Virus record (IMG/VR): IMGVR_UViG_2724679538_000004
Span: 1 to 64,000 of that record
From: a virus
Taxonomy: Duplodnaviria; Heunggongvirae; Uroviricota; Caudoviricetes
Direction: 5' to 3' (one strand)
DNA: 64,000 nt
A program made the position numbers and the translations under genes. Positions 304 through 60,655 of the stretch are shown here, piece by piece. Under the pieces are notes generated by a model. The model was not told where the DNA came from, made no database searches, and saw only the letters and a program-made list of their open reading frames with translations. Each line of letters starts with the position of its first letter. Within the stretch, counting starts at the first letter, position 1.

Positions 304-321
304 TAGGTAAGTACTTAGCTA
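304..321. repeat. palindromic intergenic motif A copy (TAGGTAAGTACTTAGCTA)
   Basis: Matches recurrent TAGGTAAGTACTTACCTA element; 45 bp upstream of fibre start. Confidence 0.7.
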
Positions 322-366
322 TCAATGTGGGCATGGATGCCCACATTTTAAGGAGTGTAAAAGTAG

Positions 367-3300
367 ATGTGGTACAGGGAAGGTACTATTACCTTTACGC
401 AAGGTAAATCTACGCTTGTAGGCGTAGGCACAAAATGGAATATGACCGAGAATGGCGTTCTGCCTGGAATGATCGTCATTGGGCCAGATAATAAGCTGTA
501 TGAAATTAAACGCGTCATCAGCGACACTAATTTGACGCTAGTCGAGGCTTATACAGGAGAAACCCAAAGCGAAGTCCCTTGTCGTATTATCACCACTTAT
601 GAAGGCGATTTAACGCAATTCAGTGCTCGGTTTACGGCATTAATGAATCGTATGTCTGCCGATTCAAAGACAATGCGTAGTTGGTTGACAGCTCTTGATG
701 AGGTGACAATCGAGCGTGAAGACGGCACAGAAGTGACCGTTAAGCCTCTGATGCAGATCGTCAACGAACATAATGAAAACGTTGAGTGGTATAAAAATAA
801 CACTGACGCAATTGATGCCGCTGGCGACAAAGCTCGTGAAGCTGCGGCCAGTGCTGCGGTGGCAGCAGAAAGCGCCAATACCGCTGGAGAAAAAGCCTCT
901 CAAGCGTCTCAAAGTGCATCCGCTGCGGCAGATTCACAAAGTGCTGCAAGCGCGAGCGCAACTGCTGCAAAAAAATCTGAAACAAACGCAGAATCAGCAT
1001 ATGTAGCGGCAGCAGAATCAGCATCTTTGGCGTCGACTAAAGCATCGGAGGCGTCCACATCTGCGTCCAGTGCCTCTGCATCTAAGGATGCGGCTAAACT
1101 ATCAGAGACTAACGCTTCATCGAGTGCAAACGCGGCGGCATCATTTGCAACAGAAGCTGAAAATGCGTCTAAGGCAGCAAAAACATCAGAGACAAACGCA
1201 AAAGCATCTGAAACGGCCGCCGAACAGAGTGCATCATCTGCAAACAGTTCTAAATCTGCGGCGGAGGCGTCTGCGAGCGAAGCCTCTGCAAGCGCTGATA
1301 GTGCTTCATCAAGTGCAACTGCGGCAGGAAAGTCTGCGGAAAGCGCGTCGACATCAGCGGCAACAGCTACCGCAAAAGCGACAGAAGCGACGGAACAGGC
1401 GACGTTGGCCAGTGCCTCAGTTACAGCAGCAAAGACATCGGAAGAAAATGCTAAGGCTTCTGAAAAAAATGCTCAGGCATCAATGATCGCGGCGGCGGCA
1501 TCAGCTGAATCGGCAGCAAGTTCAGCAACGGAGGCTGTATCTTCTAAGGATGCGGCAGTGACAAAGGCAACAGAGGCAGCAGAGTCAGCTTCAACCGCGA
1601 CAACAAAGGCAAGTGAGTCCTCCGCCAGTGCTGATGCGGCAGCGAAGAGCAAAACAGCTGCGGAATCAGCGGCAACAAGAGCGGAATCAGCGGCTGAACG
1701 AGCAGAAGACATTGCGGCGGCAGTAGGGATTGAAGACGCAACTCTGACAACAAAAGGTGTTGTGAAGCTTAGTAGCGCAATCAACAGCGAGTCTGAGGAA
1801 CTGGCAGCTACGCCGAAAGCGGTAAAGGCAGCCTATGATTTGGCCAACAGCAAGTATACAGCACAGGACTCAACTACAGCTCAAAAGGGACTTGTCCAAC
1901 TTAGCAGTGATATCAATAGCGGTAGCGAAGCTTTTGCGGCCACACCAAAGGCGGTAAAAGCCGCATACGACAACGCTGAAACACGCCTTCGGAAAGACCA
2001 GAACGGCGCAGATATACCTGGGAAAGACACCTTCGTAAAAAATATTGGCGCGGCGAAAGCTGCCAGCGGCAATATCAGCATCGGAGGGGACAGCAATAAC
2101 TGGACGACGGCGCAATTTATCGAGTGGCTGGAGTCTCAAGGGGCGTTCAATCATCCATATTGGATGTGCAAAGGCTCCTGGGCTTACGCTGCCAATAAAA
2201 TCATCACGGATACCGGTTGTGGAAATATACAACTTTCTGGCGCTGTAGTTGAGGTTATGGGGGTTCGAGAGGCTATGACTATTCGCGTCACCACCCCCAC
2301 GACCGCAACGAACGGCGGAACCGTCAAGGCTCAGTTTACCTACATCAACCACGGTGACGCTTATGCGCCAGGCTGGAGACGCGACTTTAATCGAGCTGGC
2401 GATTCAATGTCAGGCCAATTGACTTTGGCGAATATGTCGCAGCCATTAAGATCACCAGGAGGTGGTATATTTGCCAATGATGGCAACGTGTATATCAATA
2501 AACAGGGTTTTGCTGGATGGATCGATGCGCTCTTTTTGAAATTAACCGGAGGCACTTTAACTGGTCCTCTTGCATTCCAAAATTCAAACGGCAAAGCATT
2601 TAGGGTGATGACGGATCATACACCTTCACTAAATACTTATATGCAAATATGGGGTGAATCTTCAAGGCCAACGGTTATTGAATTAAAAGATGAGAAGGGT
2701 TATCACTTTTACAGCCAAAGAAACACTAATGACTCTATTACAATGAGTATTAATGGTGAGGTGGTTTCCAGATCAGCAAATGCTTTCCGTGCCGCATACG
2801 GGAATTATGGCTTTTTCATTCGAAATGACGGAACGACTACTTATTTCCTACTAACCAATTCAGGTGATCCGCTTGGTGGGTGGAGTGGCTTGCGTCCATT
2901 GTACATTAATAACTCAACAGGACGAGTAACGTTTGGAAATGGCGTTGATATTAATAATGGGGCAGTAATTAACGGTGGTGTTGGACTGGGGGTGACTAAC
3001 GCTCTTGGCGGAAACTCTATTGTTTTAGGCGATAATGATACGGGCTTTAAACAGAACGGTGATGGCATTCTTGATGTTTATGCAAATAATGCCCATGTTT
3101 TTCGGTTCGTTAATGGCACGCTGCAAAGCCTTAAGCCATTGAGTGTAACAGGGGATATTGCGTCAAGTGCATGGGTTTACGCCAACCGTTATTCTATCAA
3201 CAGCGGATCTGGCGCATGGATTGATATGCGGAACCAGAACGTCATTTTCGGGAAGAATGCTGTAAGCACAAGCTCTGCACAGGCGTTGTTGAGACAAGAC

Positions 3301-3756
3301 CACGCGGATCGCAAATTCTTTGTGGGGGGCTTGGGAAACAGTCAGTTTGGCTTTTACATGATCAACAACTCACGTACAGCAAATGGCACGGATGCCAACG
3401 CATATCTCCAAAATGATGGTACTTGGGTTTGTGGAGGTAATGGTAACTTTAACGATGTTTATATCCGCTCTGATGCCAGACTTAAAAGTAATTTCGCACC
3501 GATTAAAAATGCTCTGAGTAAAGTGAAAGCACTGAGCGGATTAATTTACGATAAAAGGGAAAATTTTCAATCTAGTACGATTCGCCGTGAGGCGGGGGTT
3601 GTTGCTCAGGAACTCCAAAAGGTTTTACCAGAAGCTGTTTCAGCTTACAAAGATGCAAATGGCGAAGATGTTCTGACTATTTCAAATTCTGCGCAAATAG
3701 CACTTCTTATTGAGGCTGTTAAAGAGCTGGCAGCAATCATTGAACAAAAAATATGA
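367..3756 (+). CDS. tail fibre protein with C-terminal S74-type intramolecular chaperone domain
   Basis: 1129 aa; long Ala/Ser-rich low-complexity repeats; two TPKAVKAAYD phage fibre repeats; C-terminus SDARLKSNF...GVVAQELQKVLPEAV...AVKELAAII matches S74 chaperone pattern; RBS AAGGAG upstream. Confidence 0.85.
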   Translation: MWYREGTITFTQGKSTLVGVGTKWNMTENGVLPGMIVIGPDNKLYEIKRVISDTNLTLVEAYTGETQSEVPCRIITTYEGDLTQFSARFTALMNRMSADSKTMRSWLTALDEVTIEREDGTEVTVKPLMQIVNEHNENVEWYKNNTDAIDAAGDKAREAAASAAVAAESANTAGEKASQASQSASAAADSQSAASASATAAKKSETNAESAYVAAAESASLASTKASEASTSASSASASKDAAKLSETNASSSANAAASFATEAENASKAAKTSETNAKASETAAEQSASSANSSKSAAEASASEASASADSASSSATAAGKSAESASTSAATATAKATEATEQATLASASVTAAKTSEENAKASEKNAQASMIAAAASAESAASSATEAVSSKDAAVTKATEAAESASTATTKASESSASADAAAKSKTAAESAATRAESAAERAEDIAAAVGIEDATLTTKGVVKLSSAINSESEELAATPKAVKAAYDLANSKYTAQDSTTAQKGLVQLSSDINSGSEAFAATPKAVKAAYDNAETRLRKDQNGADIPGKDTFVKNIGAAKAASGNISIGGDSNNWTTAQFIEWLESQGAFNHPYWMCKGSWAYAANKIITDTGCGNIQLSGAVVEVMGVREAMTIRVTTPTTATNGGTVKAQFTYINHGDAYAPGWRRDFNRAGDSMSGQLTLANMSQPLRSPGGGIFANDGNVYINKQGFAGWIDALFLKLTGGTLTGPLAFQNSNGKAFRVMTDHTPSLNTYMQIWGESSRPTVIELKDEKGYHFYSQRNTNDSITMSINGEVVSRSANAFRAAYGNYGFFIRNDGTTTYFLLTNSGDPLGGWSGLRPLYINNSTGRVTFGNGVDINNGAVINGGVGLGVTNALGGNSIVLGDNDTGFKQNGDGILDVYANNAHVFRFVNGTLQSLKPLSVTGDIASSAWVYANRYSINSGSGAWIDMRNQNVIFGKNAVSTSSAQALLRQDHADRKFFVGGLGNSQFGFYMINNSRTANGTDANAYLQNDGTWVCGGNGNFNDVYIRSDARLKSNFAPIKNALSKVKALSGLIYDKRENFQSSTIRREAGVVAQELQKVLPEAVSAYKDANGEDVLTISNSAQIALLIEAVKELAAIIEQKI

Positions 3757-3818
3757 TAATGTTGGAGAGGCTAAAGCCTCTCCCATAATAAACTGTCATA
3801 ATATTTGAGAGGGTTATT

Positions 3819-4601
3819 GTGTCAATTACAAAAGTTCCTGGATGGATAGGATCATCAGCGGTTTCAGAAACAGGGCAACGTTGGATGAGTGCTGCCCGCA
3901 CCACAGTCCAATTGTCCGCAGCAGGAAATATGTCACAGATGGGTGGTAGGTCAAAAGAGATTTACTACTCAATAGGGGCTAATCACAATTATAACAAAGA
4001 CACATTAATATCATATTTACGCTCCGTTGGCTCTACACCTGTAGTAGTTACTATTACAGGGGATTTAGTTTCTATAAGCAGTACAGTCCCTTGTCTTGAC
4101 TTTCCGGGTGACTTATCAAACTCATATATTAACCTCGTAATTAATAGTGGAGTTACCGTATATGGACGAGGTGGTAACGGGGGTAACAAAAGTAATGGTG
4201 CTGCTGGGGGAACTGCCATAAATAATGGAATTGGGACTCGTTTACGTATTACAAACAATGGAGCTATAGCCGGTGGTGGTGGTGGCGGCGGTGCTACCTA
4301 TGTGAAATCAAGTCTTTCAGATGGAGTATATGGTGGTGGCGGCGGCAGACCATTTGGTACTCGTGGTGCTTCTTCTGGCCCCATGAGTTCAAATTCCACA
4401 GACGCTACTTTAACAGCGGCTGGTAAAGGTGCGGTGTCAAAGGGAACTGGTGGCGCAGGTAATGGTGGCAACGTGGGTGCCGCTGGCTCTAACGGATATG
4501 GTGGTGGGACAATGTATAATGGTGGTGCAGGGGGCAAAGCGGTGGCAGGTAGTGCGCCAACATGGATTTCAGTTGGGTCGATATATGGCGCTCGTGTGTA
4601 A
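3819..4601 (+). CDS. gp38-like glycine-rich tail fibre adhesin
   Basis: GTG start with RBS; N-terminus VPGWIGSSAVSETGQRWMS resembles T2-type gp38 (from memory); poly-Gly runs (GGGGGGG, GGGGG) separating variable segments. Confidence 0.65.
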   Translation: MSITKVPGWIGSSAVSETGQRWMSAARTTVQLSAAGNMSQMGGRSKEIYYSIGANHNYNKDTLISYLRSVGSTPVVVTITGDLVSISSTVPCLDFPGDLSNSYINLVINSGVTVYGRGGNGGNKSNGAAGGTAINNGIGTRLRITNNGAIAGGGGGGGATYVKSSLSDGVYGGGGGRPFGTRGASSGPMSSNSTDATLTAAGKGAVSKGTGGAGNGGNVGAAGSNGYGGGTMYNGGAGGKAVAGSAPTWISVGSIYGARV

Positions 4602-4612
4602 GTACTTACCTA
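4597..4612. repeat. motif A copy
   Basis: TGTAAGTACTTACCTA overlapping stop codon of gp38-like gene. Confidence 0.7.
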
Positions 4613-4675
4613 CAAAAATGGAAAGAATTGTGGTATAAATTCGCCATCCCGATTTGACTTTTCATGGAGGAAAAC

Positions 4676-4999: not shown

Positions 5000-5012
5000 C
5001 AGGAGATCAAGG

Positions 5013-5705: not shown

Positions 5706-5707
5706 GT

Positions 5708-6095: not shown

Positions 6096-6131
6096 GGTTG
6101 ACAACTCCCCTCAATGAGGGGAGTTACAATT

Positions 6132-7244: not shown

Positions 7245-7913
7245 ATGACGAAGATCATTGTGGTTGGTGGAACAAAAGGCGGCCCCGGTAAATCTACCGT
7301 TGCCCAGCAAATCGCAGTTTGTCTCAAGATCAAAAAGAAAAAGAAAGTTCAAATCACCGATATTGATATTCAACGCACCACAACAAGCTGGTGCGAAGAC
7401 CGGCGTCAGAATGAAGAACTTGAGCTAATTCCATTCGCCTATGTGCCGGACGATATCGTTAAACACATCAAATCGCTTAAAGGGCGCTACGATTATGTTG
7501 TTATTGATGCTGGGGGCTTTGACTCCGAAATCCAACGACACGCAATGCTGTTGGCCGATTTCGTCGTTATCCCACTACGTCCTAAGCGTCGGGATTTGAA
7601 GTCGTTGCGTGATATTGATCCGATAGTTGATAACGTTCGCATCATTAACGACAAAGTGAAGGTCCGCGCGGTCATGAACCAATGCCCGGCTCTGCCATCA
7701 CAAGTGTCCCGCATTCTGGCAGCCAAAGAGATCGTTGAGACGTTTGGCATCGAATCTGCGCCAGTCAACCTGTACAACCGCAACGTCTATGACGACGCAG
7801 AAGAATCAGGTCGCTCTATCTTTGAAATGACAGGTAGTGAGCGTGACAAGAAGGCGGAAGCTGAGTTTGAAGAGTTTGTAGATTATCTATTGAGTCTGGA
7901 GGAAGAAGAATAA
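7245..7913 (+). CDS. parA: ParA-type partition ATPase
   Basis: Deviant Walker A KGGPGKST near N-terminus (MTKIIVVGGTKGGPGKST); RBS AAGGGA; followed by small overlapping partner gene. Confidence 0.8.
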   Translation: MTKIIVVGGTKGGPGKSTVAQQIAVCLKIKKKKKVQITDIDIQRTTTSWCEDRRQNEELELIPFAYVPDDIVKHIKSLKGRYDYVVIDAGGFDSEIQRHAMLLADFVVIPLRPKRRDLKSLRDIDPIVDNVRIINDKVKVRAVMNQCPALPSQVSRILAAKEIVETFGIESAPVNLYNRNVYDDAEESGRSIFEMTGSERDKKAEAEFEEFVDYLLSLEEEE

Positions 7914-8272
7914 TGTCCATGAAAATGGGAGACCTTGCAAAGCGCACTGAGCCTACTACACAGGTCAAAAACAACACGCCGTTGCGCCAGCCAGTCAGAC
8001 CACAGGGCCGCCCAACTCGTGGTAAAGAAAAAATCAAAAGCCGTACTATGTCGCTGGAAGACGAGTACTTTGAACTTCTGGAGATGATGAAATGTATCCC
8101 TCGTTTTGAGAAGTTCACACGTTCTGACGTTATTCGTGCAGCCATTTTCCATCTTGCTGAAAAATCGCCGCAAGAAATCGAAGATATCGTGAAACTGAAC
8201 GATGCAATTACAGCTGCCGACGTCACTATGCGTACTGATGAAATCAAACGTGAGCTGATGAAGAAAGGTTAA
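7913..8272 (+). CDS. putative partition centromere-binding protein (ParG/ParB-like)
   Basis: 119 aa, start overlaps parA stop (TAATG); basic N-terminus, position typical of partner of small ParA. Confidence 0.45.
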   Translation: MSMKMGDLAKRTEPTTQVKNNTPLRQPVRPQGRPTRGKEKIKSRTMSLEDEYFELLEMMKCIPRFEKFTRSDVIRAAIFHLAEKSPQEIEDIVKLNDAITAADVTMRTDEIKRELMKKG

Positions 8273-8324: not shown

Positions 8325-9143
8325 TCAGACTAATGCCGCGCTAATACTGCGTTCAGTCTTGCCCACTCCCACCTTCACAAAAGGGCTACCGTAGCTTGGT
8401 GGTTTCTTGATTAATTTTCCTACGTATAGTTCTCTAATATGTTCATCGGCTATTCTGCCAACAAATTCATAACGTTTGGTATCAGGGCTAAGAGCTATAT
8501 CTCGTGTAAAGTACTGCTGAGAACCGGCTTTGACCCAGCATTCTATCTGATAAACCTCCATTATTAGCCCACCATATGTAGCGTAGGCATATTTGAGATT
8601 CTCATCTCTGGGAACCTTTGCCCATACGCCACGCGTAGCTTCATATAATGCCAGAGCGGACATTCCTGACTTGTAGGTGCTGTTTAGCAGAAAGGCTAAT
8701 CCGGCGTGCTCAGGAGCAATTTCAGTTTCCTCTTGTAGAACTAAGTGATGGTAGGCATCCAGTGATATTCTTCCCATCAGGGAACCACTTCCTCGTACTT
8801 TATTAGTTAGTTCTCCAACCCCCATAAGATCAATGCATGTTGCCTCAACAAGTTTGGCTGTGCTTTCATCCATGCCATGACGAAGAATATCTATGCCTAA
8901 TTTCTTTTGCGCCAAAAGTTCTTTGATTCGTCTTGATTTAGGAGAATCATCGAGGTACTTGATGTGGTCAAGACAACGAGTCGATTTGCCTTTTCCTATG
9001 TAAAACGGTCTTTTCATCTTGTCTTCTGTATCATAGAGACAGTAAACATAGTATTTAGCCTTATCCAACGATTTCGCGTACACCGATAAATCGTACATTG
9101 TTTCGTCCCTTAGCAACTGAATAATGCGTTCTATTTTACACAT
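8325..9143 (-). CDS. GIY-YIG domain nuclease
   Basis: YYVYCLYD..(7)..PFYIGKGKSTR matches GIY-YIG core with conserved Arg and downstream Glu; C-terminal 160 aa unassigned. Confidence 0.55.
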   Translation of the reverse strand: MCKIERIIQLLRDETMYDLSVYAKSLDKAKYYVYCLYDTEDKMKRPFYIGKGKSTRCLDHIKYLDDSPKSRRIKELLAQKKLGIDILRHGMDESTAKLVEATCIDLMGVGELTNKVRGSGSLMGRISLDAYHHLVLQEETEIAPEHAGLAFLLNSTYKSGMSALALYEATRGVWAKVPRDENLKYAYATYGGLIMEVYQIECWVKAGSQQYFTRDIALSPDTKRYEFVGRIADEHIRELYVGKLIKKPPSYGSPFVKVGVGKTERSISAALV

Positions 9144-9332: not shown

Positions 9333-9352
9333 ATAAGTAAGTAGTTACCTAT
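9333..9352. repeat. motif A copy
   Basis: ATAAGTAAGTAGTTACCTAT abutting ATG 9351. Confidence 0.7.
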
Positions 9353-14600: not shown

Positions 14601-14620
14601 ATAAGTAGATACTTACTTAC
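14601..14620. repeat. motif A copy
   Basis: ATAAGTAGATACTTACTTAC. Confidence 0.6.
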
Positions 14621-15494: not shown

Positions 15495-15510
15495 CGTAAG
15501 TAAGTACAAG
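15495..15510. repeat. motif A copy (partial)
   Basis: CGTAAGTAAGTACAAG. Confidence 0.5.
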
Positions 15511-15522
15511 ATTATTTTTACT

Positions 15523-17859: not shown

Positions 17860-18161
17860 GCAATCTAACTTCTTGGGAATGGTGGCTGGTAAGCTATTTT
17901 GTGGCTGCCGGAGTCGGATTTGCCTTTTACGTAGGTCTGTTAGTCGTAAAACTACTACTGATTAGATTTGCTAGTCATAAACGTATTGACGATGGTCTGT
18001 GGCGTCTGGGGTCTCTTGTTGAGATTCACTACGGCCAACTTAAGGAGAACGAAACTATCACTATACAAGCGAAACGATTTACCGCCACAATCACGAGGAC
18101 TCCTGATCAGAAAGGCGCTTTGATCAAAAAAGTTGCAACTAAAACTCTTGCTGAAAAATAA
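17856..18161 (+). CDS. membrane protein
   Basis: 101 aa, ATGA overlap; TM segment WWLVSYFVAAGVGFAFYVGLLVV. Confidence 0.5.
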   Translation: MSNLTSWEWWLVSYFVAAGVGFAFYVGLLVVKLLLIRFASHKRIDDGLWRLGSLVEIHYGQLKENETITIQAKRFTATITRTPDQKGALIKKVATKTLAEK

Positions 18162-18178
18162 GTATTTACTTACTTATT
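18157..18178. repeat. motif A copy
   Basis: AATAAGTATTTACTTACTTATT overlapping stop codon. Confidence 0.6.
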
Positions 18179-18922: not shown

Positions 18923-18997
18923 GATGGTGTAGCTCAGCGGTAGAGCAGTTGGCTGTTAACCAACTGGTCGGTGGTTCGAATCCACCCACCATCGCCA
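18923..18997 (+). tRNA. tRNA-Asn (anticodon GTT)
   Basis: Hand-folded cloverleaf: acceptor GATGGTG/CACCATC, D-stem GCTC/GAGC, anticodon loop CTGTTAA, T-arm GGTGG-TTCGAAT-CCACC, encoded CCA. Confidence 0.85.
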
Positions 18998-19002
18998 ATT
19001 TA

Positions 19003-19089
19003 GGGGAGTTAGTCCGTAGAGGTAGCGGTGTAGACTGTAAATCTACTGTCATTGCGACTCGGGTGGTTCGACTCCATCACTCCCCACCA
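19003..19089 (+). tRNA. tRNA-Tyr (anticodon GTA), long variable arm
   Basis: Acceptor GGGGAGT/ACTCCCC, anticodon arm GTAGA-CTGTAAA-TCTAC, T-loop GGTTCGACTCC, encoded CCA. Confidence 0.75.
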
Positions 19090-19093
19090 AATT

Positions 19094-19169
19094 GCCGGTT
19101 TAGCTCAGTTGGTAGAGCAGTCGCTTTGTAAGCGAATGGCCAGCGGTTCAAGTCCGTTAACCGGCACCA
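19094..19169 (+). tRNA. tRNA-Thr (anticodon TGT)
   Basis: Acceptor GCCGGTT/AACCGGC, D-arm TAGCTCAGTTGGTAGAGC, anticodon loop TTTGTAA, T-loop TTCAAGT, encoded CCA. Confidence 0.75.
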
Positions 19170-28867: not shown

Positions 28868-31800
28868 ATGAAGGCACTGATGGTTAGAACTGACTTTTCA
28901 CTTGGAGAGTCAGCTCTAAAAGCAGAAAACGCGGTGAAGATTGCCAGAGAAGCTGGCTACACCGCTGTAATTTCAGCAGATAGCATGAACATTGCGAGTG
29001 TTATTCCACTACAACGCGCCGCTGGTGACGACATGGCGGTAATTTGTGGTGTGAAACTAAACATTGTTGATGATCCCACATACGAGCACCGGGCTAAACT
29101 TGCTAAAGAGTCTATGGGATGTATGGAATCATTAGAGCGTGGGCGGAACTACTCGTTTACCGCACTAATTAAAAATGAGCAGGGATATCGCGACATCTGC
29201 GAACTAATGACGGTGGCAAACACACGAGAACAGTTCTACTTTGTGCCCCGTCTCTCGCTCGATCAGTTGGTTTCTACATATGCCAAAGGCAACATCATCC
29301 TGCTCACTTCCGACATCGGTAGCGTGTTCCAACGCAACGATTTTGCAAAAATCATAAGCTCACTGATTACAGCGGGTGGAAAAGACAACTTCTATAGTGT
29401 GGTTTATCCGCACCCTACCCCATTCTACGACCAGATTAACGTCCGGGCGATGAAAGTCGCCAGCGCACTGAAAATAGAGCCAGTGGCGTTCTATCCCGCT
29501 TATTACGAATCGATCGACGATGCAGACATTAAAGACATTGCGCACATGGTTACGAACAACATCAAAATCGACCAGCCGCATCGTCTGCGTATTCCCCACC
29601 AGCGAGATAACGCCGTCAATGGTCGCCGCCATCTCCTTGAGGCTCTTAAAGCCTTCTCCGTTCGCATGGATGTGCCGGTGACAGCTTCAATGGCCTCCAC
29701 GACACAGGACGCCATTATCGAAGCCTGCACGTGGCGCTGGCATGAATTGCCACCAGCACTTCCTAAGATGGCGGACGACGAGCCTGTAACTCTGATGAAG
29801 CTGGCTGTTGCGGGGCTGCGCAAACGTCTTACTACAAAAGAGTTTGGTTATACACCACCGGCTTCTGAGCACCGAGTGTATGTTGATCGCCTTAAGTACG
29901 AAATGGACACGCTGACCCGCCTGGGATTTTGTGGTTACTTCCTGATGGTACGCGATCTGATGAATCACAGCCGTGAAACAGGCATTCCTGTCGGGCCTGG
30001 TCGTGGTTCCTCTGCTGGTTCTCTGGTGGCATGGTGCATAGGCATAACCAACGTCGATCCTATCCGTCACGGTCTTCTGTTTGAGCGTTTCATCAACCCT
30101 GAGCGTCTCGACTTACCGGATGCGGATCTGGATTTCAGCCAGGCTCGTCGTCATGAGGTGATCGAGTATCTGAATGAGCGCTATGGCGAAGATTACGTTG
30201 CCGGCATTCCAAACTTCACCTATCTGGGCGCGGCATCTGCGCTGCGTGACACTGCACGTATTTACGGTGTCGATGCTGCGGATATGGCGGTATCCAAAGA
30301 GTTCAAGAATCTGGAGGACGATAGTCTGTCGCTGGAAGAGCTGCGCGAGCAACTGGCTAGCCTGGACAAATACGCCACGAAAAACCCGGAAGCATTCAAA
30401 GCGGCGTGTAAGTTGCAAAGCCTGATGCGTGGTTTTGGTCGTCACGCTGCGGGGATGATCGTCGCTGGCGTTCCATTAGTAGAGCGCACGCCCGTCGAGC
30501 TGCGTGGCAATGCTCGATGTATTGCGTTCGATAAACGTTACTGCGAGGCGATGGGGCTGATTAAGTTGGACGTTCTCGGTCTGGCAACGCTCGATCTTCT
30601 GGATAGCGCGAAACGCTACATCAAAGAGAGTACCGGGGAAGACATCAATCTCGACGCTATCCCACTGGACGATCGCAAGGTTCTGGATGGGTTCGCTGCA
30701 GGGTACACGCAGGGCGTATTCCAGCTGGAGTCCGGCCCCATGCGTAAGCTGCTTAAAGATCTGGGCGGTGGCATCGAGCCAATGAGCTTCAAAACCGTTG
30801 TCGCCACGACCGCCCTCTTCCGACCTGGACCGATTCAATCCGGCATGTTGGATGACTATGTTTCCGTTGCGAAAGGATTTATGACGCCTACATCGCTACA
30901 TCCTGTCTTGGATGAACTGACCTCTGAAACAAATGGAGTGATTCTCTATCAGGAACAAACGATGAACGCAACAAGGCTTCTTGCTGGTTTCACAATGGCC
31001 GAGGCGGATGGTGTGCGTTCAGCAATCGGTAAGAAGAACATGGAAAAGATGAGGAGCATGGGTGAGAAATTTGTCATTCAGGCTCAAGCTGGGTGGATCG
31101 ACGTAGAGCTTGAAAATGGCGCAATACAACGGATTCATCGCGCAGAACATTTTAAATGCGAGGACGGTACTCTGAGGACAGTTGAAGAGGCGTTGGAGCA
31201 TGGAGTGAAGCTGCCCATGCCAGTTGTGCGCGTTACAACGTCACATCCAGGTCTGTCTGAGACGAAGGCAAAAGAGATATGGACTGCATTTGAGAAAAAC
31301 GGAGCCTATCAGTTCAATAAATCACACTCAGTTGCTTATTCTTTAATCAGTTATCAGTCTATGTGGCTAAAGACGCACTACCCTGCTGAGTTCTTCGCAG
31401 CTGCGCTCACCATTCTGGGCGAGGATAAGCATCAGGGGCTGGTGAAGGATGCGCTGACCTATGGCATTCGCGTATTGCCACCAGACGTTAATGTGTCATC
31501 TAACCGAATTGAGATCCGCACACTCGAAGACGGCAGTCAGGCACTGTATGCGCCATTCTCTGCTGTTAAAGGTTGTTCTGAAAATGGTTGTCAGGCAATT
31601 ATGCGTGCGCGTGAGAAAGTTGGTGGCAAATTCGAGTCAGTGGCACAATTCGATGAAGCGGTCGAGAAGCGTGCATGTAACAGTCGTGTACGCGAGTCGC
31701 TTCATAAAGTAGGGGCTTTTGCGTCAATTGAGTCAGGCAGTCTGCCAGCAACTGATCCTGAACGACTGCGCGACCAGGCTGAGCTGATGGGCAATCTCGT

Positions 31801-32905: not shown

Positions 32906-33234
32906 AGATATTACCTTCTTAATTTTGTGAGCCACATAGTGCGGCGAGAATTTGATCTGTATAGATTGGGACTTACTTAGGCACTTAAGGAGGAGACTCA
33001 CGAAGAAGGGAAATCAGAAGATAACACTGAACTGAGACTGCTTTACTAAAACTGCTTACATAAGGTCTGTCTTGCAAACCAACGATGCTATTAACGCATA
33101 CCCTTTCTTTTCATGCAACCTTTATTTTTCAAAGATAACTAATTTTTGTCACCGTTGGTTTAGTAAACGTTAACGAACCAGACGATGACAGACACCTTTA
33201 CAGAGAACAGATGCCCGCCAATTGGCGGGCATCA

Positions 33235-34778: not shown

Positions 34779-34805
34779 AGATAATAAGTAAGTACTGATC
34801 TATTA
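34779..34805. repeat. motif A copy
   Basis: AGATAATAAGTAAGTACTGATCTATTA. Confidence 0.6.
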
Positions 34806-38242: not shown

Positions 38243-38268
38243 AGGCGTCCAAACGGACGCCTTTTTTG
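38243..38268 (+). terminator. rho-independent terminator (GGCGTC family)
   Basis: AGGCGTCC-aaac-GGACGCCT TTTTTG. Confidence 0.75.
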
Positions 38269-38282
38269 TATGTTGAAAATGT

Positions 38283-38298
38283 ATAAGTACTTACTTAT
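38283..38298. repeat. motif A copy
   Basis: ATAAGTACTTACTTAT. Confidence 0.6.
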
Positions 38299-39906: not shown

Positions 39907-39921
39907 ATAATAAGTAAGTAC
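39907..39921. repeat. motif A copy (partial)
   Basis: ATAATAAGTAAGTAC. Confidence 0.5.
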
Positions 39922-39941
39922 AAATCACAAAAGGAAAGCAC

Positions 39942-40217: not shown

Positions 40218-40432
40218 ATTTACACTACGATATATATAAGTTAGCATTTACCTATCATGAAGATATATTTAGAAGCCATCTTGCTTATATTATCAACAAT
40301 GTTTGTCTTGGATTGTATGTTTACAGGTGTAATCCGCAGCGTTCTTTCCCCTGTCAACGAAGTAGTAATCAATTCGTTGGCCGTTGTACTCCTCTTCAAT
40401 TCTGCTTTTAAGGTGATTTACGAGGTAGCTGC

Positions 40433-41469: not shown

Positions 41470-42525
41470 CTATTTGCGAGTCTTTGCCTTGCGCAACTCT
41501 TCGAGAAGCGCCAGTTCTTCTTTACTCAACATGACCATTTTGCCTTCTTTTTCGTCAGGCGCAACGTCGATAATGTCATCTTGATTCTCATCTGGGAGGC
41601 TATATTCCGTCTCATCATTATCGATTTTTGTTGATATTTGTGCCTGGCGTAACTTTGGCCGCCTATAGTGGATGACGAAGTAGACCGAGTTTCCGCGCTT
41701 AACTTCCGTGTAATCGAGATATCCTATCTCTCGCAGCTGTTCCATAGCCTTTCTTACCGTCGCATTCTGAGTAATAGTGCGACTTGTCAGATTAAGTCTG
41801 GCGCGTAAACGGGCTAGTGATATTGGTGCCGGATCAGGCGGCAAACTTTCAATAAAAGTATAAAGCGCCTGAGCGGATTCTTTTCTTGAGAGTTCGTTTA
41901 TAGCCCGGAGTTGCAGAAGAACCTTTTTGTCGAACTGGTAGAGTTCGAAAATCTTGGGATCTGCTTTCAGTTCGACCGTATCGTGCTTGACACTATATTT
42001 TGCCGTTTGCACAAGATGCGTTACGTAAAACTCATCAGAGCCTTTGCTACGGAACGAGATGGTATTTGTGGCAATACGGCTTAGCGAACTGTCCAGGCGT
42101 TTGCGTAACTTCGCTGATGACCTGGCGGTCGGAATGCCACACAGCCTTACAAACTCAACGAACGGCAACGTGACGGTATCGCCAACGACCTTGTGTTTGG
42201 CAAACGCGTGGATTATTCCCACCCACGTTTTAAAGTCGTTATCCATATCAAGCCGAAGGCCAGAGATCCTTATGTCTTCGTACCCTTCTGCTTTTGCCAG
42301 AGACAGCTGTTTGAGTTCAGCAGAGGCATCCATAGAGACCATTTGCCCCTTTCTTCCTCTGGATGTCGATTTCAGCGTCGGAACGAAGAGGCCCAGACGC
42401 ATCAAAGCAACAGGCTGAACAGTGTTATTAGTGTTAGGAACCAACGTAACAACTTCGCCTGTCTTTTTATCTGTTTCTGAAAATGCTTCAACGATCGCTA
42501 TGTTTTTATTGCCGTTTTCGCTCAT
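41470..42525 (-). CDS. repA: iteron-binding plasmid replication initiator (RepA/Rep_3-like)
   Basis: 351 aa, flanked on both sides by arrays of its presumptive binding repeats; C-terminal winged-helix-like region. Confidence 0.7.
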
Positions 42526-42569
42526 TCCAAATGTCTCTTGTTATTCGACGGCTTTGGTGGCCTTTGCTG

Positions 42570-42691
42570 ATTACAGTGGATAGTAGCACTCATCACAGCG
42601 GTTATCCTACCGTCTATAGTGGTTTTTCTCCTCTCTATAGTGGTTGCTTTGCTCCCTATAGTGGATTATTTGCTCTCTATAGTGGATATCG
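42570..42691. repeat. iteron array upstream of repA (about 6 copies, 21-22 bp phasing)
   Basis: CTCTATAGTGG(A/T)T repeated at helical spacing. Confidence 0.8.
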
Positions 42692-42799
42692 ATCATGTCT
42701 GAAGGCAGATGGCACAACGGTTTGAGGTGGGCGGGGATCTTATTGGGTCTTTATGGGTCTCTTTGGTTCTCTTTGTGATCTGAATTACTGGATCGGGCC

Positions 42800-44035: not shown

Positions 44036-44057
44036 ATAGGTATATACTTACTTATAA
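44036..44057. repeat. motif A copy
   Basis: AATAGGTATATACTTACTTATA. Confidence 0.6.
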
Positions 44058-48700: not shown

Positions 48701-48720
48701 ATAGGTAAGTACTTATCTAT
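48701..48720. repeat. motif A copy
   Basis: ATAGGTAAGTACTTATCTAT. Confidence 0.75.
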
Positions 48721-48765
48721 TAACATGGGCCACTACATTTAGTGGCCCTTTTTATTTGGTGATAC

Positions 48766-52407: not shown

Positions 52408-53283
52408 ATGAATTTTACCAAACTGAAAGACCACCTAAAGATTGCCACGGATCGTCTCGTTGGTTTCAAGGCTGAACCATATGAAATCAATGAAGGTCAC
52501 GTTATGGCGACGGAAGCTATTTACCAAATGGTCGATCAGTTTCATGAACTCTTTCAACACCCGCGTCGTGTGGTGCCAACACCGGAATTACTTCGTCTCC
52601 GTGCCAGATTGATTCATGAGGAAGCTGTAATAGAAGGCATCCCAGCCGCACAAAAAGGAGACATTGAGCAGCTGCTGGATGCAATGGCTGATTTTCTCTA
52701 TGTAGGTGTAGGCACAATGGTCGCAGTTAAAGGTGGTATTTCTACAGGTATGACTTACTACACGCAGGAACAAAGCATTGATCGCTTTATTGAGACATTC
52801 TTTGTGCCTCAGAATACTGTGTTCGATGACATGGCTATTCCATTCAAAGAAGCTCAGCAGGCGGCTGTGATGCTTGAAGAGTTGGCTGACAAACTTGAAA
52901 AGAAAACCATGAGAGATCCTGAACTGATTCAGGAGCTACGCCGTGTAATGAATAAAATTTACGTCGCGTGCATGATGACATATCGACTCGCTGATTTCTT
53001 GGGTGTCGATGTTGTTGAGCTGGTACGTGAGATTCATCGTTCCAACATGACTAAATTATGGCCTGCGGATATGGAAGAGCGCCAAAAGGCTGTAGAGAAC
53101 TGCAAATACGACAAACACGATCTAAGTTTTCGCCATGCGGACGGGACAGACATGATGATAGGCTTTCGTGTTTCAGATGGAAAAATACTCAAATCGCCAA
53201 CATACAGTGACGTTGATCTTACTGCGTTTGTAGCGCAGGCGAAGTCTTCTGCAATATATGATGAAGTTAAAAAATTATTGTAG
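52408..53283 (+). CDS. hypothetical protein, possible MazG-like NTP pyrophosphohydrolase domain
   Basis: HEEAVIEG..GDIEQLLDAMADFLYV resembles MazG EExxE..D motif region; context of nucleotide metabolism genes. Confidence 0.35.
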   Translation: MNFTKLKDHLKIATDRLVGFKAEPYEINEGHVMATEAIYQMVDQFHELFQHPRRVVPTPELLRLRARLIHEEAVIEGIPAAQKGDIEQLLDAMADFLYVGVGTMVAVKGGISTGMTYYTQEQSIDRFIETFFVPQNTVFDDMAIPFKEAQQAAVMLEELADKLEKKTMRDPELIQELRRVMNKIYVACMMTYRLADFLGVDVVELVREIHRSNMTKLWPADMEERQKAVENCKYDKHDLSFRHADGTDMMIGFRVSDGKILKSPTYSDVDLTAFVAQAKSSAIYDEVKKLL

Positions 53284-53296
53284 GTAGTTACTTATG
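53281..53296. repeat. motif A copy
   Basis: TAGGTAGTTACTTATG overlapping stop codon. Confidence 0.6.
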
Positions 53297-53427
53297 TGTG
53301 TATATTAATTTTGTGTACTAACTACACCTGGTAAGAGAATCTTCGTATATTTTGGTGGCCATGTGCCACCATTTTTTTTGTCATCTGGTCTTGCCTGGTT
53401 TTCGCGTGTAAACTCTCACTTATGAAT

Positions 53428-53448
53428 AATAGGTATGTACTTATCTAT
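53428..53448. repeat. motif A copy
   Basis: AATAGGTATGTACTTATCTAT. Confidence 0.7.
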
Positions 53449-54569: not shown

Positions 54570-54570
54570 T

Positions 54571-56101: not shown

Positions 56102-56162
56102 AAATTGTTCGCCTCTCCAATATTGCAACAATAGAACTCTCAAAATGGATTAAGGATAAAAA

Positions 56163-56582: not shown

Positions 56583-56591
56583 GGAGTATTA

Positions 56592-57149: not shown

Positions 57150-57461
57150 CTTTAAACAAAGCCTACTTTTTACGGAGTAGGCTTTGTCAATACTAAAAGT
57201 ATGCAACAAACAGCCTGGCGTATTCTACAACTGCAACAACACATTTAATTATAAAACTGCCTATGTTACCTTTTTGCGACGGGATTCCAAAAATACAGTT
57301 CTTGTGGGCCTGATGGTATATTTACAAGCCAAAAATTGCGAACAGGACCAACAATGCGCCTTCTATTTATTTCCTGCCTGTAATTAACACTTTTCCGCCT
57401 GATAGGTTTCATCAAAATATACACAGTGACGAAACAACTTAACAACTGACAGGAGCACGAA

Positions 57462-58253
57462 ATGAGTGTCGTTGAAAATGCAGTATTGAAAGATGACCTT
57501 GATGAACTGACAGCAATGCTTCAAGCGCTTGATGAACCAGTGCAAAAGGCGTCGCGGGTAGAAAATACAGATGAAATTGACAACTTACTTGAAGGACTGG
57601 ATTCAGGTATTGCAGTAAGTTCCGATGACATTGTAGGGGAAGTGATAGACGCTGAGGTCTCTGGTGATTTTAGCTTTGCGTTAAATGAGTTAGAAATTGA
57701 ACATGAGTCATTAAATGTAAACGATAAAGAAGAAGAGGAAAAAATTGAGTCTGATATATCTCAAAATAAAATAATTTCTGTTTCAGAGGAACAAATTAGC
57801 AGGTCAGATAAAGGAAAAAATAACAACAAAAAAATCCGTTCCACAAGAGGTCCACGCTTTACACTGGACGACAAAGAACAGTCATTTTTTGAAAATGCAG
57901 GCCTCGATAAAGAATCATTCCTTGCAGCTTATGAAAAAGCACCAGTTAAGGCAAAGGATAAGGTTTTGAATTTATTAAACTGGTTTAGTGGTGGTCCAGA
58001 TATTAGTGTTTATACAGTAATATCATTGCGTCACATTATTGAGGCTAATGTGGCTACAAGTAACAGTATTAAAATTGCTTTGATGAGCAATCCTGAAAAA
58101 CCTTATCCACTCAACACAGCATCAACGCAGGCCGGTCAGATGATGGCTGTTTTTCCTGCTACTGGAGTCGCTTTACGAGAAGGTGGAAATCTTACACTGA
58201 ATGTGGAGTCGCCGATCATTAAGAAGTTTAAAGCGGAGTACACTATTGGATGA
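57462..58253 (+). CDS. hypothetical protein with highly acidic N-terminal half
   Basis: 263 aa; first 100 residues dominated by Asp/Glu; AGGAG RBS. Confidence 0.5.
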   Translation: MSVVENAVLKDDLDELTAMLQALDEPVQKASRVENTDEIDNLLEGLDSGIAVSSDDIVGEVIDAEVSGDFSFALNELEIEHESLNVNDKEEEEKIESDISQNKIISVSEEQISRSDKGKNNNKKIRSTRGPRFTLDDKEQSFFENAGLDKESFLAAYEKAPVKAKDKVLNLLNWFSGGPDISVYTVISLRHIIEANVATSNSIKIALMSNPEKPYPLNTASTQAGQMMAVFPATGVALREGGNLTLNVESPIIKKFKAEYTIG

Positions 58254-58330
58254 AGTTCCCCTACTCAAAATAAAGCCCATAGAGAGCATTTTGTTGCTGG
58301 GTAAGCCAATCGCATACCCAGCACTAAAAA

Positions 58331-58374
58331 AACGCGTCAGAAAGCTTCTCGTGCACGTTCTGACGCGTTTTTTA
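58331..58374 (+). terminator. rho-independent terminator
   Basis: ACGCGTCAGAA...TTCTGACGCGT followed by TTTTTTATT. Confidence 0.65.
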
Positions 58375-58404
58375 TTGGTTGATATGCATTTGAGGAAATG
58401 AAAA

Positions 58405-58425
58405 AATAGGTAAGTAGTTACCTAT
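58405..58425. repeat. motif A copy
   Basis: AATAGGTAAGTAGTTACCTAT. Confidence 0.75.
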
Positions 58426-58438
58426 ACGGAGTGATTCA

Positions 58439-59032
58439 ATGATAGCGGCTGAGAAAATTAAAAAACGAGAGCGTGACCCTTCTCTTAGAGATCTATGGCG
58501 CACACCTCAATGGTTGTTTAACGCTATCCAGAAATACTTAGGTGTTCAATTCGATGTGGACGTTGCCTGCAACAAAGACAACGCTCTTCTTGCAAATTAC
58601 ATAGGCGTGGAGCGTGATGCTTTGAAAAGCAACTGGGGAGAACCGGGCACTATAGCATTCCTAAACCCGCCCTACTCGAAAATTTCCCCGTGGATCGAGG
58701 CCGCAATACGCGAACAAGCACGAGGTGTCACTACAGTTATGCTTATACCACAATCCCTTGATACAAAATGGTATGAGCGGGCCACTGAGCACGCAAACGA
58801 AACGGTTATTCTGTCTGGAGGTCGTGTGGCTTTCGTGGAACCAGACGTTAATTTGGGATTTGTGGAGGTAAACATTAACCCTGGTGGAAGTATGCTTCTG
58901 ATTTTTAGAGGCTTTTGTCAGGGAGCTGGACACACGATTAGAAAAATTCCTCTGGCGGTGTTGAAACAGCTGGGGGGTTATGATCCTGCCAATGTTTCCA
59001 GAAAGAAAAGAACATACAAGAAGGCAGCTTAA
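58439..59032 (+). CDS. DNA N6-adenine methyltransferase (phage Dam-type)
   Basis: Catalytic NPPY motif (FLNPPYS); 197 aa. Confidence 0.75.
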   Translation: MIAAEKIKKRERDPSLRDLWRTPQWLFNAIQKYLGVQFDVDVACNKDNALLANYIGVERDALKSNWGEPGTIAFLNPPYSKISPWIEAAIREQARGVTTVMLIPQSLDTKWYERATEHANETVILSGGRVAFVEPDVNLGFVEVNINPGGSMLLIFRGFCQGAGHTIRKIPLAVLKQLGGYDPANVSRKKRTYKKAA

Positions 59033-59214
59033 GTTCTGTCTGGGAGTGTTCTTGGACCTGCTTCTGTATAAATAAATACATACTAATATATTAATATACA
59101 GATGCAGGTTTTTTGTAGCAAACGTGCCAGACCTTGACAACATCCCAGAACCCACTAGAAACCCTCCCCAGACGCTCTAGAATCAATTTTGAGTAGCAAA
59201 GTAAGGAAACACAC

Positions 59215-59445
59215 ATGGTCTATCAAACAAACGTTGTAGCGCTCGTTGAGAGCGATTTTCTAGCCCAGGCGCGTGAAATGCTTAAAGATCGCGAGCGGGC
59301 GTTTAATTTGTATGAATGGGCACTCAAATGCCTACATCTTGGCGAGCATAAAGAACTTGTTGAACAGCTGTTAGGTGAGTTGATTAATGAGGTGTTTGCC
59401 TTAAACGTCCAGCTACATGGGCGAGAAAGTAACCAACCCCAATAA
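59215..59445 (+). CDS. hypothetical protein
   Basis: 76 aa; AAGGAAACACACATG initiation region. Confidence 0.4.
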   Translation: MVYQTNVVALVESDFLAQAREMLKDRERAFNLYEWALKCLHLGEHKELVEQLLGELINEVFALNVQLHGRESNQPQ

Positions 59446-59464
59446 TAGATAAGTACCTACTATT
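59444..59464. repeat. motif A copy
   Basis: AATAGATAAGTACCTACTATT. Confidence 0.65.
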
Positions 59465-60044
59465 CATATTATTTATCTTAAGTGATAGGATACTATAGTT
59501 TTCAGTCCATGTACTGGAGACTCGACCTGATGGGTGGAGGGTAGCGTCACTGGCGTCAGGTTTAAAAAAAAGCTCACTACCAGCGTAGAACCGGTGCCGT
59601 TTAGGCGCTGGGGAAGGGGGAACCAGAGTGAGCAGAGACAAGGGTCACTTTATGATTGTCGAGTCTGGGAAGTTCGAGAGGTTGAATCCAGTACTCCCCT
59701 TCATAAAGTGTGGGAAGATCTCGGTTCTGGGATGCTGTCATCCATAACTTCCCAAGCTTAAGCTGGCAGTAGACTTAAGCCATAACTTTTCAGGTTATGA
59801 AACGACCAGGTTGGTGAGGAACTTTTGTACTCACCTCCCTGGGAGGATATTACCTGAAAAGACAACCTCTCACTTCGTTCGAGGTGAACTTCACTCACTT
59901 CGTTCGTTCAGTTCAGATTAATTAAAAACCTCTTCTGGGAAGTAAGGTTTTAAAAAATAAATTTATTATTAATAAGTTATAACACGCACGCGTGTGCGCA
60001 CGCGCGAGGAAAAAATCGGCGCGGCGCTTGATTCAGGAGTTTAT

Positions 60045-60641
60045 ATGACGACGAAGACACCAGCCCGATCGCAAGCAAAAACTCTCAAAAAAGCCAAAAA
60101 CAAAAATTCTCCCCGCACCAATCACACAACGCCTGTCGTAGAGTTCAATCCCCAGCTTAAAACCGTGAAAATCTTTAGTGATGGCTCTTGCCTTAAAAAT
60201 CCGGGTGGTCCTGGCGGTTACGGTATCGTTCTCCAGTATCGTGGTGAGGAACGCGAGTTCTCAGATGGTTTTCATAGCACCACTAATAACCGCATGGAGA
60301 TGATGGGCGCACTCATCGGGCTGGAGCGTTTGAAATATCCATGCAACGTTATTTTGTACTCTGATAGCCAGTATCTGAAAAACGGCATGACACAGTGGAT
60401 GAAATGGTGGAAACGAAATGGATGGATGACTTCTGATAAAAAACCGGTAAAGAATGTTGATCTGTGGAAGCGTCTGGATGAGGCCGCAAGTCGACATAAT
60501 GTTCGCTGGAAGTGGGTTAAAGGCCATGCGGGACATCGTGAAAACGAGATCTGTGATCGTCTTGCTAAGATTGCAGCATTCACTGCCGCTGATACTCCAT
60601 TTAAAAAAGATTTAGGTTTTTTGAATCAAAATAGTAAGTAA
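60045..60641 (+). CDS. rnhA: ribonuclease H (RNase HI)
   Basis: [41 protein letters not shown] motifs; N-terminal basic extension; start set at ATG 60045 after CAGGAG. Confidence 0.85.
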
Positions 60642-60655
60642 GTATTTACCTATTA
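60630..60655. repeat. motif A copy
   Basis: AATAGTAAGTAAGTATTTACCTATTA overlapping RNase H stop. Confidence 0.65.

Follow-up and report, generated by a model that had tools for sequence, protein, structure and literature searches.

Sets of regulator sites dispersed over the genome are a known kind of control system in temperate phages. In the Cluster A mycobacteriophage L5, gp71 acts through one operator at an early promoter and about 24 intergenic stoperators, the consensus of which varies among relatives, and the lytic phage D29 is a repressor-deletion derivative that retains its sites (PMC5712189, PMC9283540). The C1 operators of P1 are dispersed over the P1 genome, as annotated in NC_005856. 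Here, an 18-bp palindrome, TAGGTAAGTACTTACCTA (named M1), was analysed in the window, i.e., the whole stretch of 64,000 nucleotides from IMG/VR virus record IMGVR_UViG_2724679538_000004, which can be classified as a phage-plasmid of the SSU5/pHCM2/pMT1 type. M1 recurs far beyond chance, nearly always between genes and shortly upstream of start codons. The reading that we prefer, and that we regard as evenly poised between right and wrong, is that M1 sites are the operators, some of them possibly stoperator-like, of a prophage repressor encoded at 24344-24736; we infer both the identity of the M1-binding protein and repression upon binding from the sequences. This member of the dispersed-site systems, its distribution in a very large supergroup of phage-plasmids, and its lineage variants appear to be new.

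The arrangement resembles that of L5 gp71 in that many sites would serve one repressor, lie mostly in short intergenic regions of both early and late genes, and would provide global silencing of the prophage. Salmonella phage SSU5 would be the counterpart of D29, keeping the sites without the repressor gene. The L5 sites are 13 bp long, asymmetric, orientation-dependent, and bound by a monomer, whereas M1 is an 18-22 bp palindrome, implying a dimer; furthermore, the proteins belong to unrelated families, the hosts and phage types are unrelated, and a block of elongation is only proposed for M1.

With P1 C1, the system would share a plasmid prophage of about 100 kb that is silenced by a repressor at many scattered operators, with a varying register between operators and sigma70 promoters and further sites at the gene of the repressor itself. 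Unlike M1, the C1 operators are asymmetric 17-mers (ATTGCTCTAATAAATTT-type), and C1 has 283 amino acids and is not of the Xre type. M1 was rejected as a strict P1 C1 operator, being an unrelated palindrome with a 128-amino-acid Xre-type protein as its candidate regulator. P1 controls its late genes indirectly via Lpa, whereas M1 also precedes structural and lysis genes. The lambdoid cI/Cro systems (P22 C2, 434, and lambda) offer a further parallel in their Xre/cI-fold helix-turn-helix (HTH) proteins, their palindromic promoter-overlapping operators of about 14-18 bp, and the autoregulation of the repressor; lambdoid operators form two or three clusters in the immunity region, whereas M1 is dispersed over approximately 25-30 places per genome.

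SSU5-type elements are among the commonest phage-plasmids in Enterobacterales, with more than 800 PLSDB records carrying an SSU5-like backbone, and they include pHCM2-type plasmids of S. Typhi, pMT1 of Y. pestis, and carriers of resistance genes. Nothing was found in the searchable papers on how the lysis-lysogeny decision of SSU5-type phage-plasmids is wired, and no description of the M1 motif strings or of SSU5/pHCM2 regulation was found in the searchable full-text literature.

Abundance and placement of M1

A pattern search of the window at up to three mismatches returned 12 matches to TAGGTAAGTACTTACCTA, compared with 0.00 expected from 100 dinucleotide shuffles, which confirmed the recurrent near-palindromic element proposed in the initial annotation. 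The number rose to 17 at up to four mismatches (null 0.16) and to 25 at up to five (null 1.35). When the null was derived only from intergenic DNA, which is AT-rich, it was just as low, and chance or AT-richness as the source of M1 was ruled out by the two nulls. The copies are degenerate, as none in the window is perfect and most have one to five mismatches. In a logo of 57 sites from three genomes, all 18 positions were informative, with a palindromic A/T extension at positions 0 and 19; the complete palindrome extends beyond 18 bp and is roughly (t)gaTAGGTAAGTACTTACCTAtc(a).

The centres of 16 of the 17 sites with up to four mismatches were intergenic, although intergenic DNA makes up 15.3% of the window (binomial p = 1.3e-12), and the earlier claim that density and positional bias exceed chance was thus borne out. 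The sites lie 0-130 nt 5' of start codons, with a median of about 40 nt. It had also been claimed that every copy is intergenic and that none occurs inside long open reading frames (ORFs); the first part holds for nearly all sites, and the second is contradicted by a two-mismatch copy within the CobT-like ORF (26088-26105) that had not been listed. A four-mismatch copy at 40237 had not been listed either. A copy was present within 0-6 bases of each of the 19 coordinates that had been listed, but those at 15495 and 39907 are half-sites only (one mismatch in the left half and five in the right), and those at 53281 and 59444 are weak (five mismatches).

The nucleotide identity of the window to Escherichia phage Cyrano (pLF82) was 85-88%, while SSU5 and Klebsiella SSU5-like phage-plasmids were more distant matches. 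Homologues of Cyrano genes 21-87 span the window (transferred Cyrano annotation, given below as CY numbers). Its genes include those for the tail fibre, lysis, ParA, helicase/primase/ligase, tRNAs, and integrase, an Xre-type HTH gene on the opposite strand, CobT/CobS-like and DNA polymerase III (PolIII) alpha genes, T4-like recombination genes, RepA, and genes of nucleotide metabolism. The M1 sites, to which no strand was assigned, were as follows.

304-321: one mismatch; 5' of the tail-fibre gene (367), with a terminator-like hairpin after the site
4595-4612: two mismatches; on the orf260 stop, 5' of the holin gene, with a conserved TGnTATAAA 22 nt 3' of the site
9334-9351: two mismatches; 14 nt 5' of the CY31 homologue (start 9366)
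14602-14619: four mismatches; 5' of the CY34 homologue
15497-15514: half-site with a good left half (TAAGTAAGT) and the right half lost; directly 5' of the CY35 homologue, with an orthologue in Cyrano
18159-18176: four mismatches; at the end of the CY39 homologue, before the tRNA cluster
21507-21524: two mismatches; 5' of the glutaredoxin gene
24758-24775: three mismatches, inner 14 bp perfect; its first base is the final -10 base of the HTH promoter, and it covers about -7 to +11
26088-26105: two mismatches; inside the CobT-like ORF
27377-27394: four mismatches; 5' of the CobS-like gene
32962-32979: possible weak site, five mismatches; identical sequence at Cyrano 50839
34785-34802: three mismatches; spacer of a conserved TAGATA-N17-TATTAT, 5' of the gene for a gp32-like single-stranded DNA-binding protein
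38280-38297: four mismatches; spacer of a conserved TTGAAA-N17-TATTAT, 5' of membrane/stomatin genes, immediately after a terminator (38243-38262)
39911-39928: half-site; preceded by GATAAT, the last T of which is motif position 1; 5' of the CY59 homologue
40237-40254: four mismatches; contains the -10 of a conserved TTTACA-N17-TAG(C/T)AT, with the ATG of the CY60 homologue 2 nt past the site
44037-44054: three mismatches; 5' of SbcD
48702-48719: one mismatch; within a conserved TTGATA-N17-TAACAT, followed by a terminator hairpin (48727-48748) and ribonucleotide reductase (RNR) alpha
53281-53298: weak site, five mismatches; at the stop of the MazG-like gene
53430-53447: two mismatches; past a terminator (53353-53371) and 18 nt 5' of ThyX
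58407-58424: one mismatch; begins at the last T of a conserved TTGnnA-N17-(TGn)AAAAAT, 14 nt 5' of the Dam methylase gene
59446-59463: weak site, five mismatches; 5' of the CY81 homologue
60635-60652: two mismatches; on the RNase H stop, 5' of the CY83 homologue, its right half TTTACC being the -35 of a conserved TTTACC-N17-TATnnT

The copy inside the CobT-like ORF is kept in SSU5 (43662), Klebsiella pJN2-26 (91933), and pMT1 (17488), and it may be a stoperator-type site.

Protein-binding site or hairpin

A perfect-palindrome consensus between genes could also indicate that M1 acts as RNA or as a single strand between cistrons, where it would terminate transcription, be processed by an RNase, confer stability, or control translation as an operator. 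T-rich runs follow a few copies (e.g., pJN2-26 44027 and 344), and the family encodes an RNA-binding FljA/Hfq-like protein. This explanation was compared with the covariation of the two arms in 63 distinct sites, where 469 of 567 positions paired, compared with 468.4 ± 4.0 in shuffled half-sites (P = 0.48). The 155 pairs that deviated from the consensus comprised 98 broken pairs, 45 G-T pairs, and 12 double (compensated) changes. Pairing between the arms is not under selection, and the halves are constrained independently towards the same consensus. As the arms vary independently with almost no compensation, M1 is best explained as a two-fold symmetric site for a dimeric protein and not as a hairpin. 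In addition, the stem would have only seven A/U-rich pairs, there is no general T-run 3' of M1, and true GC-rich terminators stand separately beside some copies. The half-site shuffling test ruled out M1 as a hairpin or RNA structure, and we consider any role of this kind highly improbable.

Another use of dispersed palindromes is known from RK2, with its KorA/KorB operators, and from N15, with its SopB sites, where they are spread over a plasmid or phage-plasmid and serve global gene control. M1 could accordingly be a loading or binding site for a ParB/KorB-type protein, used for plasmid segregation or long-range silencing. M1 is of parS-like size (an 18-bp palindrome), its copies are dispersed across the replicon, and SSU5-type elements encode two ParB-like proteins in the terminase region beyond the window; these genes are conserved in Cyrano, SSU5, pJN2-26, and an Acinetobacter plasmid, in each of which a motif copy lies 5' of the first ParB-like gene. 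However, parS and OB sets, like those of RK2 and N15, are near-identical, and the RK2 and N15 sites often lie far from promoters, whereas M1 is degenerate and closely tied to the starts of genes. A separate partition locus of ParA and a small protein (7245-8272) is present in the element, and pMT1 keeps M1 only in its phage-derived segment and uses other partition genes. A segregation or KorB-like role is hence improbable.

The initial annotation had left four options for the element, namely a phage promoter or operator, an RNA processing site, or a nucleoid or partition site. The independent variation of the arms spoke against RNA processing, and the degenerate, dispersed copies tied to gene starts do not favour partition. 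The promoter or operator option was supported by the distance of the sites to start codons, by their overlap with conserved sigma70-like promoters, and by one copy on the start site of the HTH gene, whose product the initial annotation had named.

Conservation and lineage variants

Cyrano, SSU5, and pJN2-26 have M1 in matching intergenic gaps, including those of the structural-gene region beyond the window, and two of the pJN2-26 copies are perfect. When 15 orthologous regions were aligned, M1 stood out as a conserved island within otherwise diverged spacers. Y. pestis pMT1 carried eight sites, all within its 27 kb of SSU5-like sequence, and none in the other 23 kb examined. The element, which the initial annotation had proposed to look for in related phage-plasmid genomes, was thus present in these four. 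The pMT1 segment (3071-26880) comprises the HTH gene with its M1-covered promoter and seven further M1 sites, and this SSU5-derived segment flanks the caf1 (F1 capsule) operon.

M1 was absent from the 107-kb Acinetobacter baumannii plasmid NZ_CP155722, which is syntenic with SSU5; in its place, TCAGTCAGTACTGACTGA occurred at 31 places (null 0.3). The syntenic Rhizobium phage RHEph10 (60% G+C) carried TCAGTCAATATTGACTGA approximately 15 times in 50 kb, the motif ending 10-40 nt before start codons with a Shine-Dalgarno (SD) sequence in between. A copy of each motif lies upstream of the HTH homologue of its genome. The enteric, Acinetobacter, and Rhizobium consensus sequences differ by mirror-image changes in both halves, which indicates that a dimeric regulator changed its specificity along with the whole site set. 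The recognition helix of the HTH protein differs between lineages as the site sequence does, and this co-variation is not attributable to one protein. The mirror-image half-sites across Enterobacterales, Acinetobacter, and Rhizobium constitute a natural series for the co-evolution of a regulator with about 30 sites.

Relation of M1 to promoters and terminators

For 79 enteric sites, sigma70 scores were 6.78 bits in the gene direction and 4.71 bits in the antisense direction (Wilcoxon p = 1e-8); the scan used a simple weight matrix and the orthologues are not independent, but each genome showed the same trend. The gain in the gene direction came mainly from the -35 part. When scores were summed over orthologues, a conserved sigma70-like promoter overlapped M1 in 11 of 22 orthologous site groups.

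The register of M1 on the conserved promoters varied from -45..-28 to -4..+13. M1 forms the 17-bp spacer of TTGAAA-N17-TATnAT (stomatin operon and gene 4) and TAGATA-N17-TATnAT (gp32), and it lies within TTGATA-N17-TAACAT (RNR alpha). The -10 is inside M1 in TTTACA-N17-TAGTAT (CY60), M1 begins at the last -10 base at Dam, the HTH gene, and ParB, and its right half is the -35 at CY83. The variable register favours an operator, because a repressor can work from all of these registers and an activator cannot. One fixed -35/-10 geometry around M1 was not found, and the best -10 offsets clustered at -4, 17, 20, and 34. The earlier statement that the motif is not itself a -35/-10 pair was correct, although -10-like hexamers adjoin both of its ends. 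The commonest arrangement in Acinetobacter was an AAWAAT resembling a -10 whose last base is motif position 1, seen in the gene direction alone, and RHEph10 had CTATnn-type hexamers a few bases 5' of its motif.

At 304-366 and 48702-48765, M1 and a -10-like hexamer are followed by a GC-rich terminator hairpin with a T-run, 10-20 nt before the start codon. This layout is kept at both places in three to four genomes and was also seen at no fewer than five Acinetobacter sites. Where a canonical terminator follows M1, the predicted transcription start is inside the 5' arm of the hairpin; therefore, upstream transcripts would stop there, while new transcripts would escape termination.

Candidate regulator

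The candidate prophage repressor and M1-binding protein and its promoter are located as follows.

24344-24736, minus strand: Xre/cI-type HTH protein with probable start at Met3 (128 amino acids)
24775-24802, minus strand: sigma70-like promoter of the HTH gene, TTTACA-N16-TAATAT

The promoter followed directly by M1 was invariant in 70 IMG/VR loci representing 16 HTH variants. An identical protein (100%) occurs in Escherichia fergusonii, and the recognition-helix region of the HTH protein (IGYKNANNLSLIKSG) is kept among the enteric variants and different in the Acinetobacter and Rhizobium homologues. An AlphaFold model (predicted local distance difference test score of about 90 over residues 12-80) was most similar to controller C-proteins, the N-terminal domains of 434 and lambda cI, and HigA, so the fold is predicted to be Xre/cI-like.

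The HTH gene is oriented away from the lytic genes. In an LF82 lysogen, the Cyrano HTH homologue was among about 14 genes expressed above the prophage background, and nearly all plus-strand genes were silent (PMC9928086). The HTH gene was found in 873 PLSDB plasmids, and its counts by genus nearly equal those of the SSU5-like backbone (Klebsiella 348/348, Escherichia 230/229, Enterobacter 92/92, Yersinia 63/63, and Salmonella 49/49). The integrase, the HTH protein, and the small CY46 were present in all plasmid-form relatives examined (window, Cyrano, pJN2-26, and pMT1), whereas SSU5, a virion isolate, lacks the integrase-HTH-CY46 block. At the corresponding junction (SSU5 42525-42761; window 19170-25303), tRNA-Asn is directly joined to the CobT-like gene in SSU5. 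The missing block and the matching counts by genus suggest that SSU5 is a lytic deletion derivative.

Under the operator reading, M1 sites would be bound by a dimeric phage-encoded HTH regulator, most likely the Xre/cI-type protein, on or beside the core promoters and start regions of most lytic units. In the plasmid-prophage state, the repressor would occupy about 20 sites in the window and approximately 25-30 per genome, and, at promoters, this would keep RNA polymerase out. Where no promoter exists, within the CobT-like gene and between late genes, the bound repressor would block the elongating polymerase in the manner of a stoperator. The HTH protein would also hold down its own production by means of the M1 copy at the start site of its gene. 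M1 gives a ready map of transcription units together with a concrete candidate repressor-operator pair. If confirmed as multi-site silencing, it would bring the design known from P1 and the Cluster A mycobacteriophages into a third group, which is unrelated to these and very widespread.

The Rha-like orf280 (62180-63022), which the initial annotation had named as a possible binder, was a poor candidate and was rejected: Cyrano and pJN2-26 lack orf280 but carry the motif. A scan of IMG/VR for heteroimmune HTH variants with another motif returned only relatives of the same specificity, its patterns being based on the recognition helix.

Activator-dependent promoters as the main rival

Several observations weigh against the operator reading. 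The other 11 of the 22 orthologous site groups have no convincing sigma70 promoter, and some of these promoter-less sites lie inside genes (CobT-like gene and 3' end of the portal gene). A -10-like hexamer adjoins M1 at a fixed place in the enteric genomes (positions 17-22; mean score +1.9), and in Acinetobacter such a hexamer ends at motif position 1 (+0.3 forward and -2.0 reverse). The promoter region of CY46, the first rightward gene, has no M1 copy. M1 is asymmetric relative to transcription, in that the upstream half is consistently better kept and two sites have the upstream half only, which a purely symmetric operator does not predict. A second motif class, described below, exists beside M1. 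Finally, SSU5 lacks the HTH gene, yet its approximately 26 M1 sites are as near to the consensus as those of Cyrano. The intact sites fit a recent deletion and fit a different, universally conserved binder equally well; site decay is uninformative on the HTH link, as SSU5 has diverged by about 6% from the closest relative that carries the HTH gene and the quality of its sites does not fall outside that of the others. A possible alternative binder is a small winged-helix protein of the CYRAN_123 family, encoded beyond the window and also present in SSU5 and the Acinetobacter plasmid. The case linking the HTH protein to M1 is circumstantial.

These points bear on the main rival explanation, in which M1 is the recognition element of -35-less, activator-dependent phage promoters of the P1 late-promoter kind. 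A phage activator made after induction would bind the palindrome centred at about -19.5 and recruit host RNA polymerase to the weak -10 at positions 17-22, and at the HTH gene the site on the start point would shut off the repressor. The M1 core AAGTACTT resembles the -22 box of the P1 late promoters; it is followed by 3 nt and TAT(c)AT with no -35 there, and the P1 arrangement is AAGT(G/T)ACTT, 4 nt, and TAnnAT. Both systems therefore have an AAGT/ACTT inverted-repeat box just 5' of the -10, no -35, and many copies before late operons. Motifs that precede most phage genes, early and late, are more commonly promoters than operators. No usable -35 exists at the tail-fibre, portal, and holin sites, the CYRAN_123-family gene, kept in SSU5 and Acinetobacter, has the same position directly 5' of the terminase genes that lpa has in P1, and the asymmetry, the upstream half-sites, and the intact SSU5 sites are all in accordance with an activator.

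The geometry differs from that of P1, however. The Lpa box is a 9-mer built around a central base and separated from the -10 by 4 nt, whereas the M1 core has 8 bp, no central base, and a 3-nt gap, with six more conserved bases on each side, and M1 also lies across and downstream of the -10. The four enteric genomes gave no sign of an Lpa homologue: a tblastn search with Lpa had no match below E = 1, and the candidate small regulators were assigned to PHROGs and Pfam families other than those of Lpa (phrog_1704 and BPP1_LPA). M1 as an Lpa-dependent promoter proper was rejected on its box and gap geometry and on the lack of TAnnnT at about half of the window sites, TAnnnT being present at positions 17-22 in only the other half. 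For an activator in general, the sites across or 3' of a conserved -10 (Dam, HTH, ParB, and CY60) are places where it cannot act, and several other sites are the spacers of promoters whose -35 and -10 hexamers are good by themselves. At some RHEph10 genes, 10-12 nt that include the SD separate the end of the motif from the start codon, and transcription must therefore start in or before the motif. An activator-dependent promoter is thus a possible but doubtful explanation of M1.

A further proposal, which we hold to be unlikely and only tentatively advance, is that M1 is the core of an undescribed class of phage promoter, placed on the start region and read by a conserved phage-specified factor throughout a supergroup of phage-plasmids of about 100 kb. 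The factor could be one such as the small winged-helix protein or a divergent sigma-like factor. The class would be common to Enterobacterales (including pHCM2 and pMT1), Acinetobacter, and Rhizobium, with co-evolving specificity. A phage sigma factor was not found in the enteric genomes in phmmer and hidden Markov model searches with RHEph10 gp045 and the Acinetobacter ORF as queries, searches of poor sensitivity in which the queries barely detect each other.

As to these query loci, a RHEph10 gene located between those for CobS and PolIII alpha (29826-30461) codes for a sigma-70 region-2 protein (Pfam E = 1.4e-8). An ORF at the same place in the Acinetobacter plasmid (79382-80065) has a weak sigma match (E = 0.016), and this element probably encodes a sigma-like factor beside CobS. 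The enteric counterpart of the locus is a 65-amino-acid ORF (window 28690-28887) that matches the N-terminal Cys-rich part of the next RHEph10 gene.

Second dispersed motif

A second dispersed motif, M2 (AGAAAACAAnTTGTTTAA; palindromic core AAACAAnTTGTTT), has the following copies of 18 bp each, which lie 9-35 nt 5' of the respective gene starts.

7196: M2, before ParA
10115: M2, before the helicase gene
25269: M2, before CobT
39429: M2, before CY58
51141: M2, before RNR beta
61539: M2, before TciA
63094: M2, before CY87

In Cyrano, SSU5, and pJN2-26, M2 is part of a cassette of about 60 nt (a -35-like hexamer, GCCTTtt, GATAAT, 10 nt, M2, SD, and ATG), which places it at about +4 to +21 of a canonical sigma70 GATAAT promoter. 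M1 and M2 are mutually exclusive in Cyrano, with 19 gaps containing M1, 12 containing M2, and none containing both. One or the other is present in 31 of the 63 Cyrano intergenic gaps of at least 40 bp before plus-strand genes. Several M2-preceded genes are among the few plus-strand genes expressed in the LF82 lysogen. No counterpart of M2 was seen in the Acinetobacter plasmid or RHEph10.

Other features of the window

The remaining features with listed coordinates are the tRNA genes and a recurrent translation-initiation cassette.

18923-19169 and 19816-19902: four tRNA genes (Asn-GTT, Tyr-GTA, Thr-TGT, and Ser-TGA)
11567, 15975, 28862, 34883, 38325, 44162, 51181, 61575, and 63123: translation-initiation cassette (A)AGGAAAAACACATG

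The M1 site at 18159 is upstream of the four-tRNA cluster. The cassette recurs at nine gene starts, and the identical sequence and spacing from the SD to the ATG suggest a strongly selected or copied ribosome-binding module.

The region 20000-22000 is a low-G+C island (33.6%, compared with about 45%) that is absent from Cyrano. It contains a 450-amino-acid minus-strand ORF with a weak AbiC-like match and is probably an accessory or defence insertion. A 272-amino-acid ORF (8325-9143, minus strand) has a LEM-3-like GIY-YIG nuclease domain and no Cyrano homologue; weak M1-like sequences flank it at 9143 and 9211, and it may be a nuclease insertion of a mobile kind. At 25218-25250, between CY46 and the M2/CobT promoter, there is a perfect 12-bp inverted repeat (CTGTACGAACAG and CTGTTCGTACAG, with a 9-nt loop), the 3' arm of which is kept in Cyrano, SSU5, and pJN2-26. 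For the CobT-like gene (25250) and the CY31 gene (9351), the longest-ORF starts are probably wrong, as homology and the positions of M2 or M1 point to 25304 and 9366 as the real starts.

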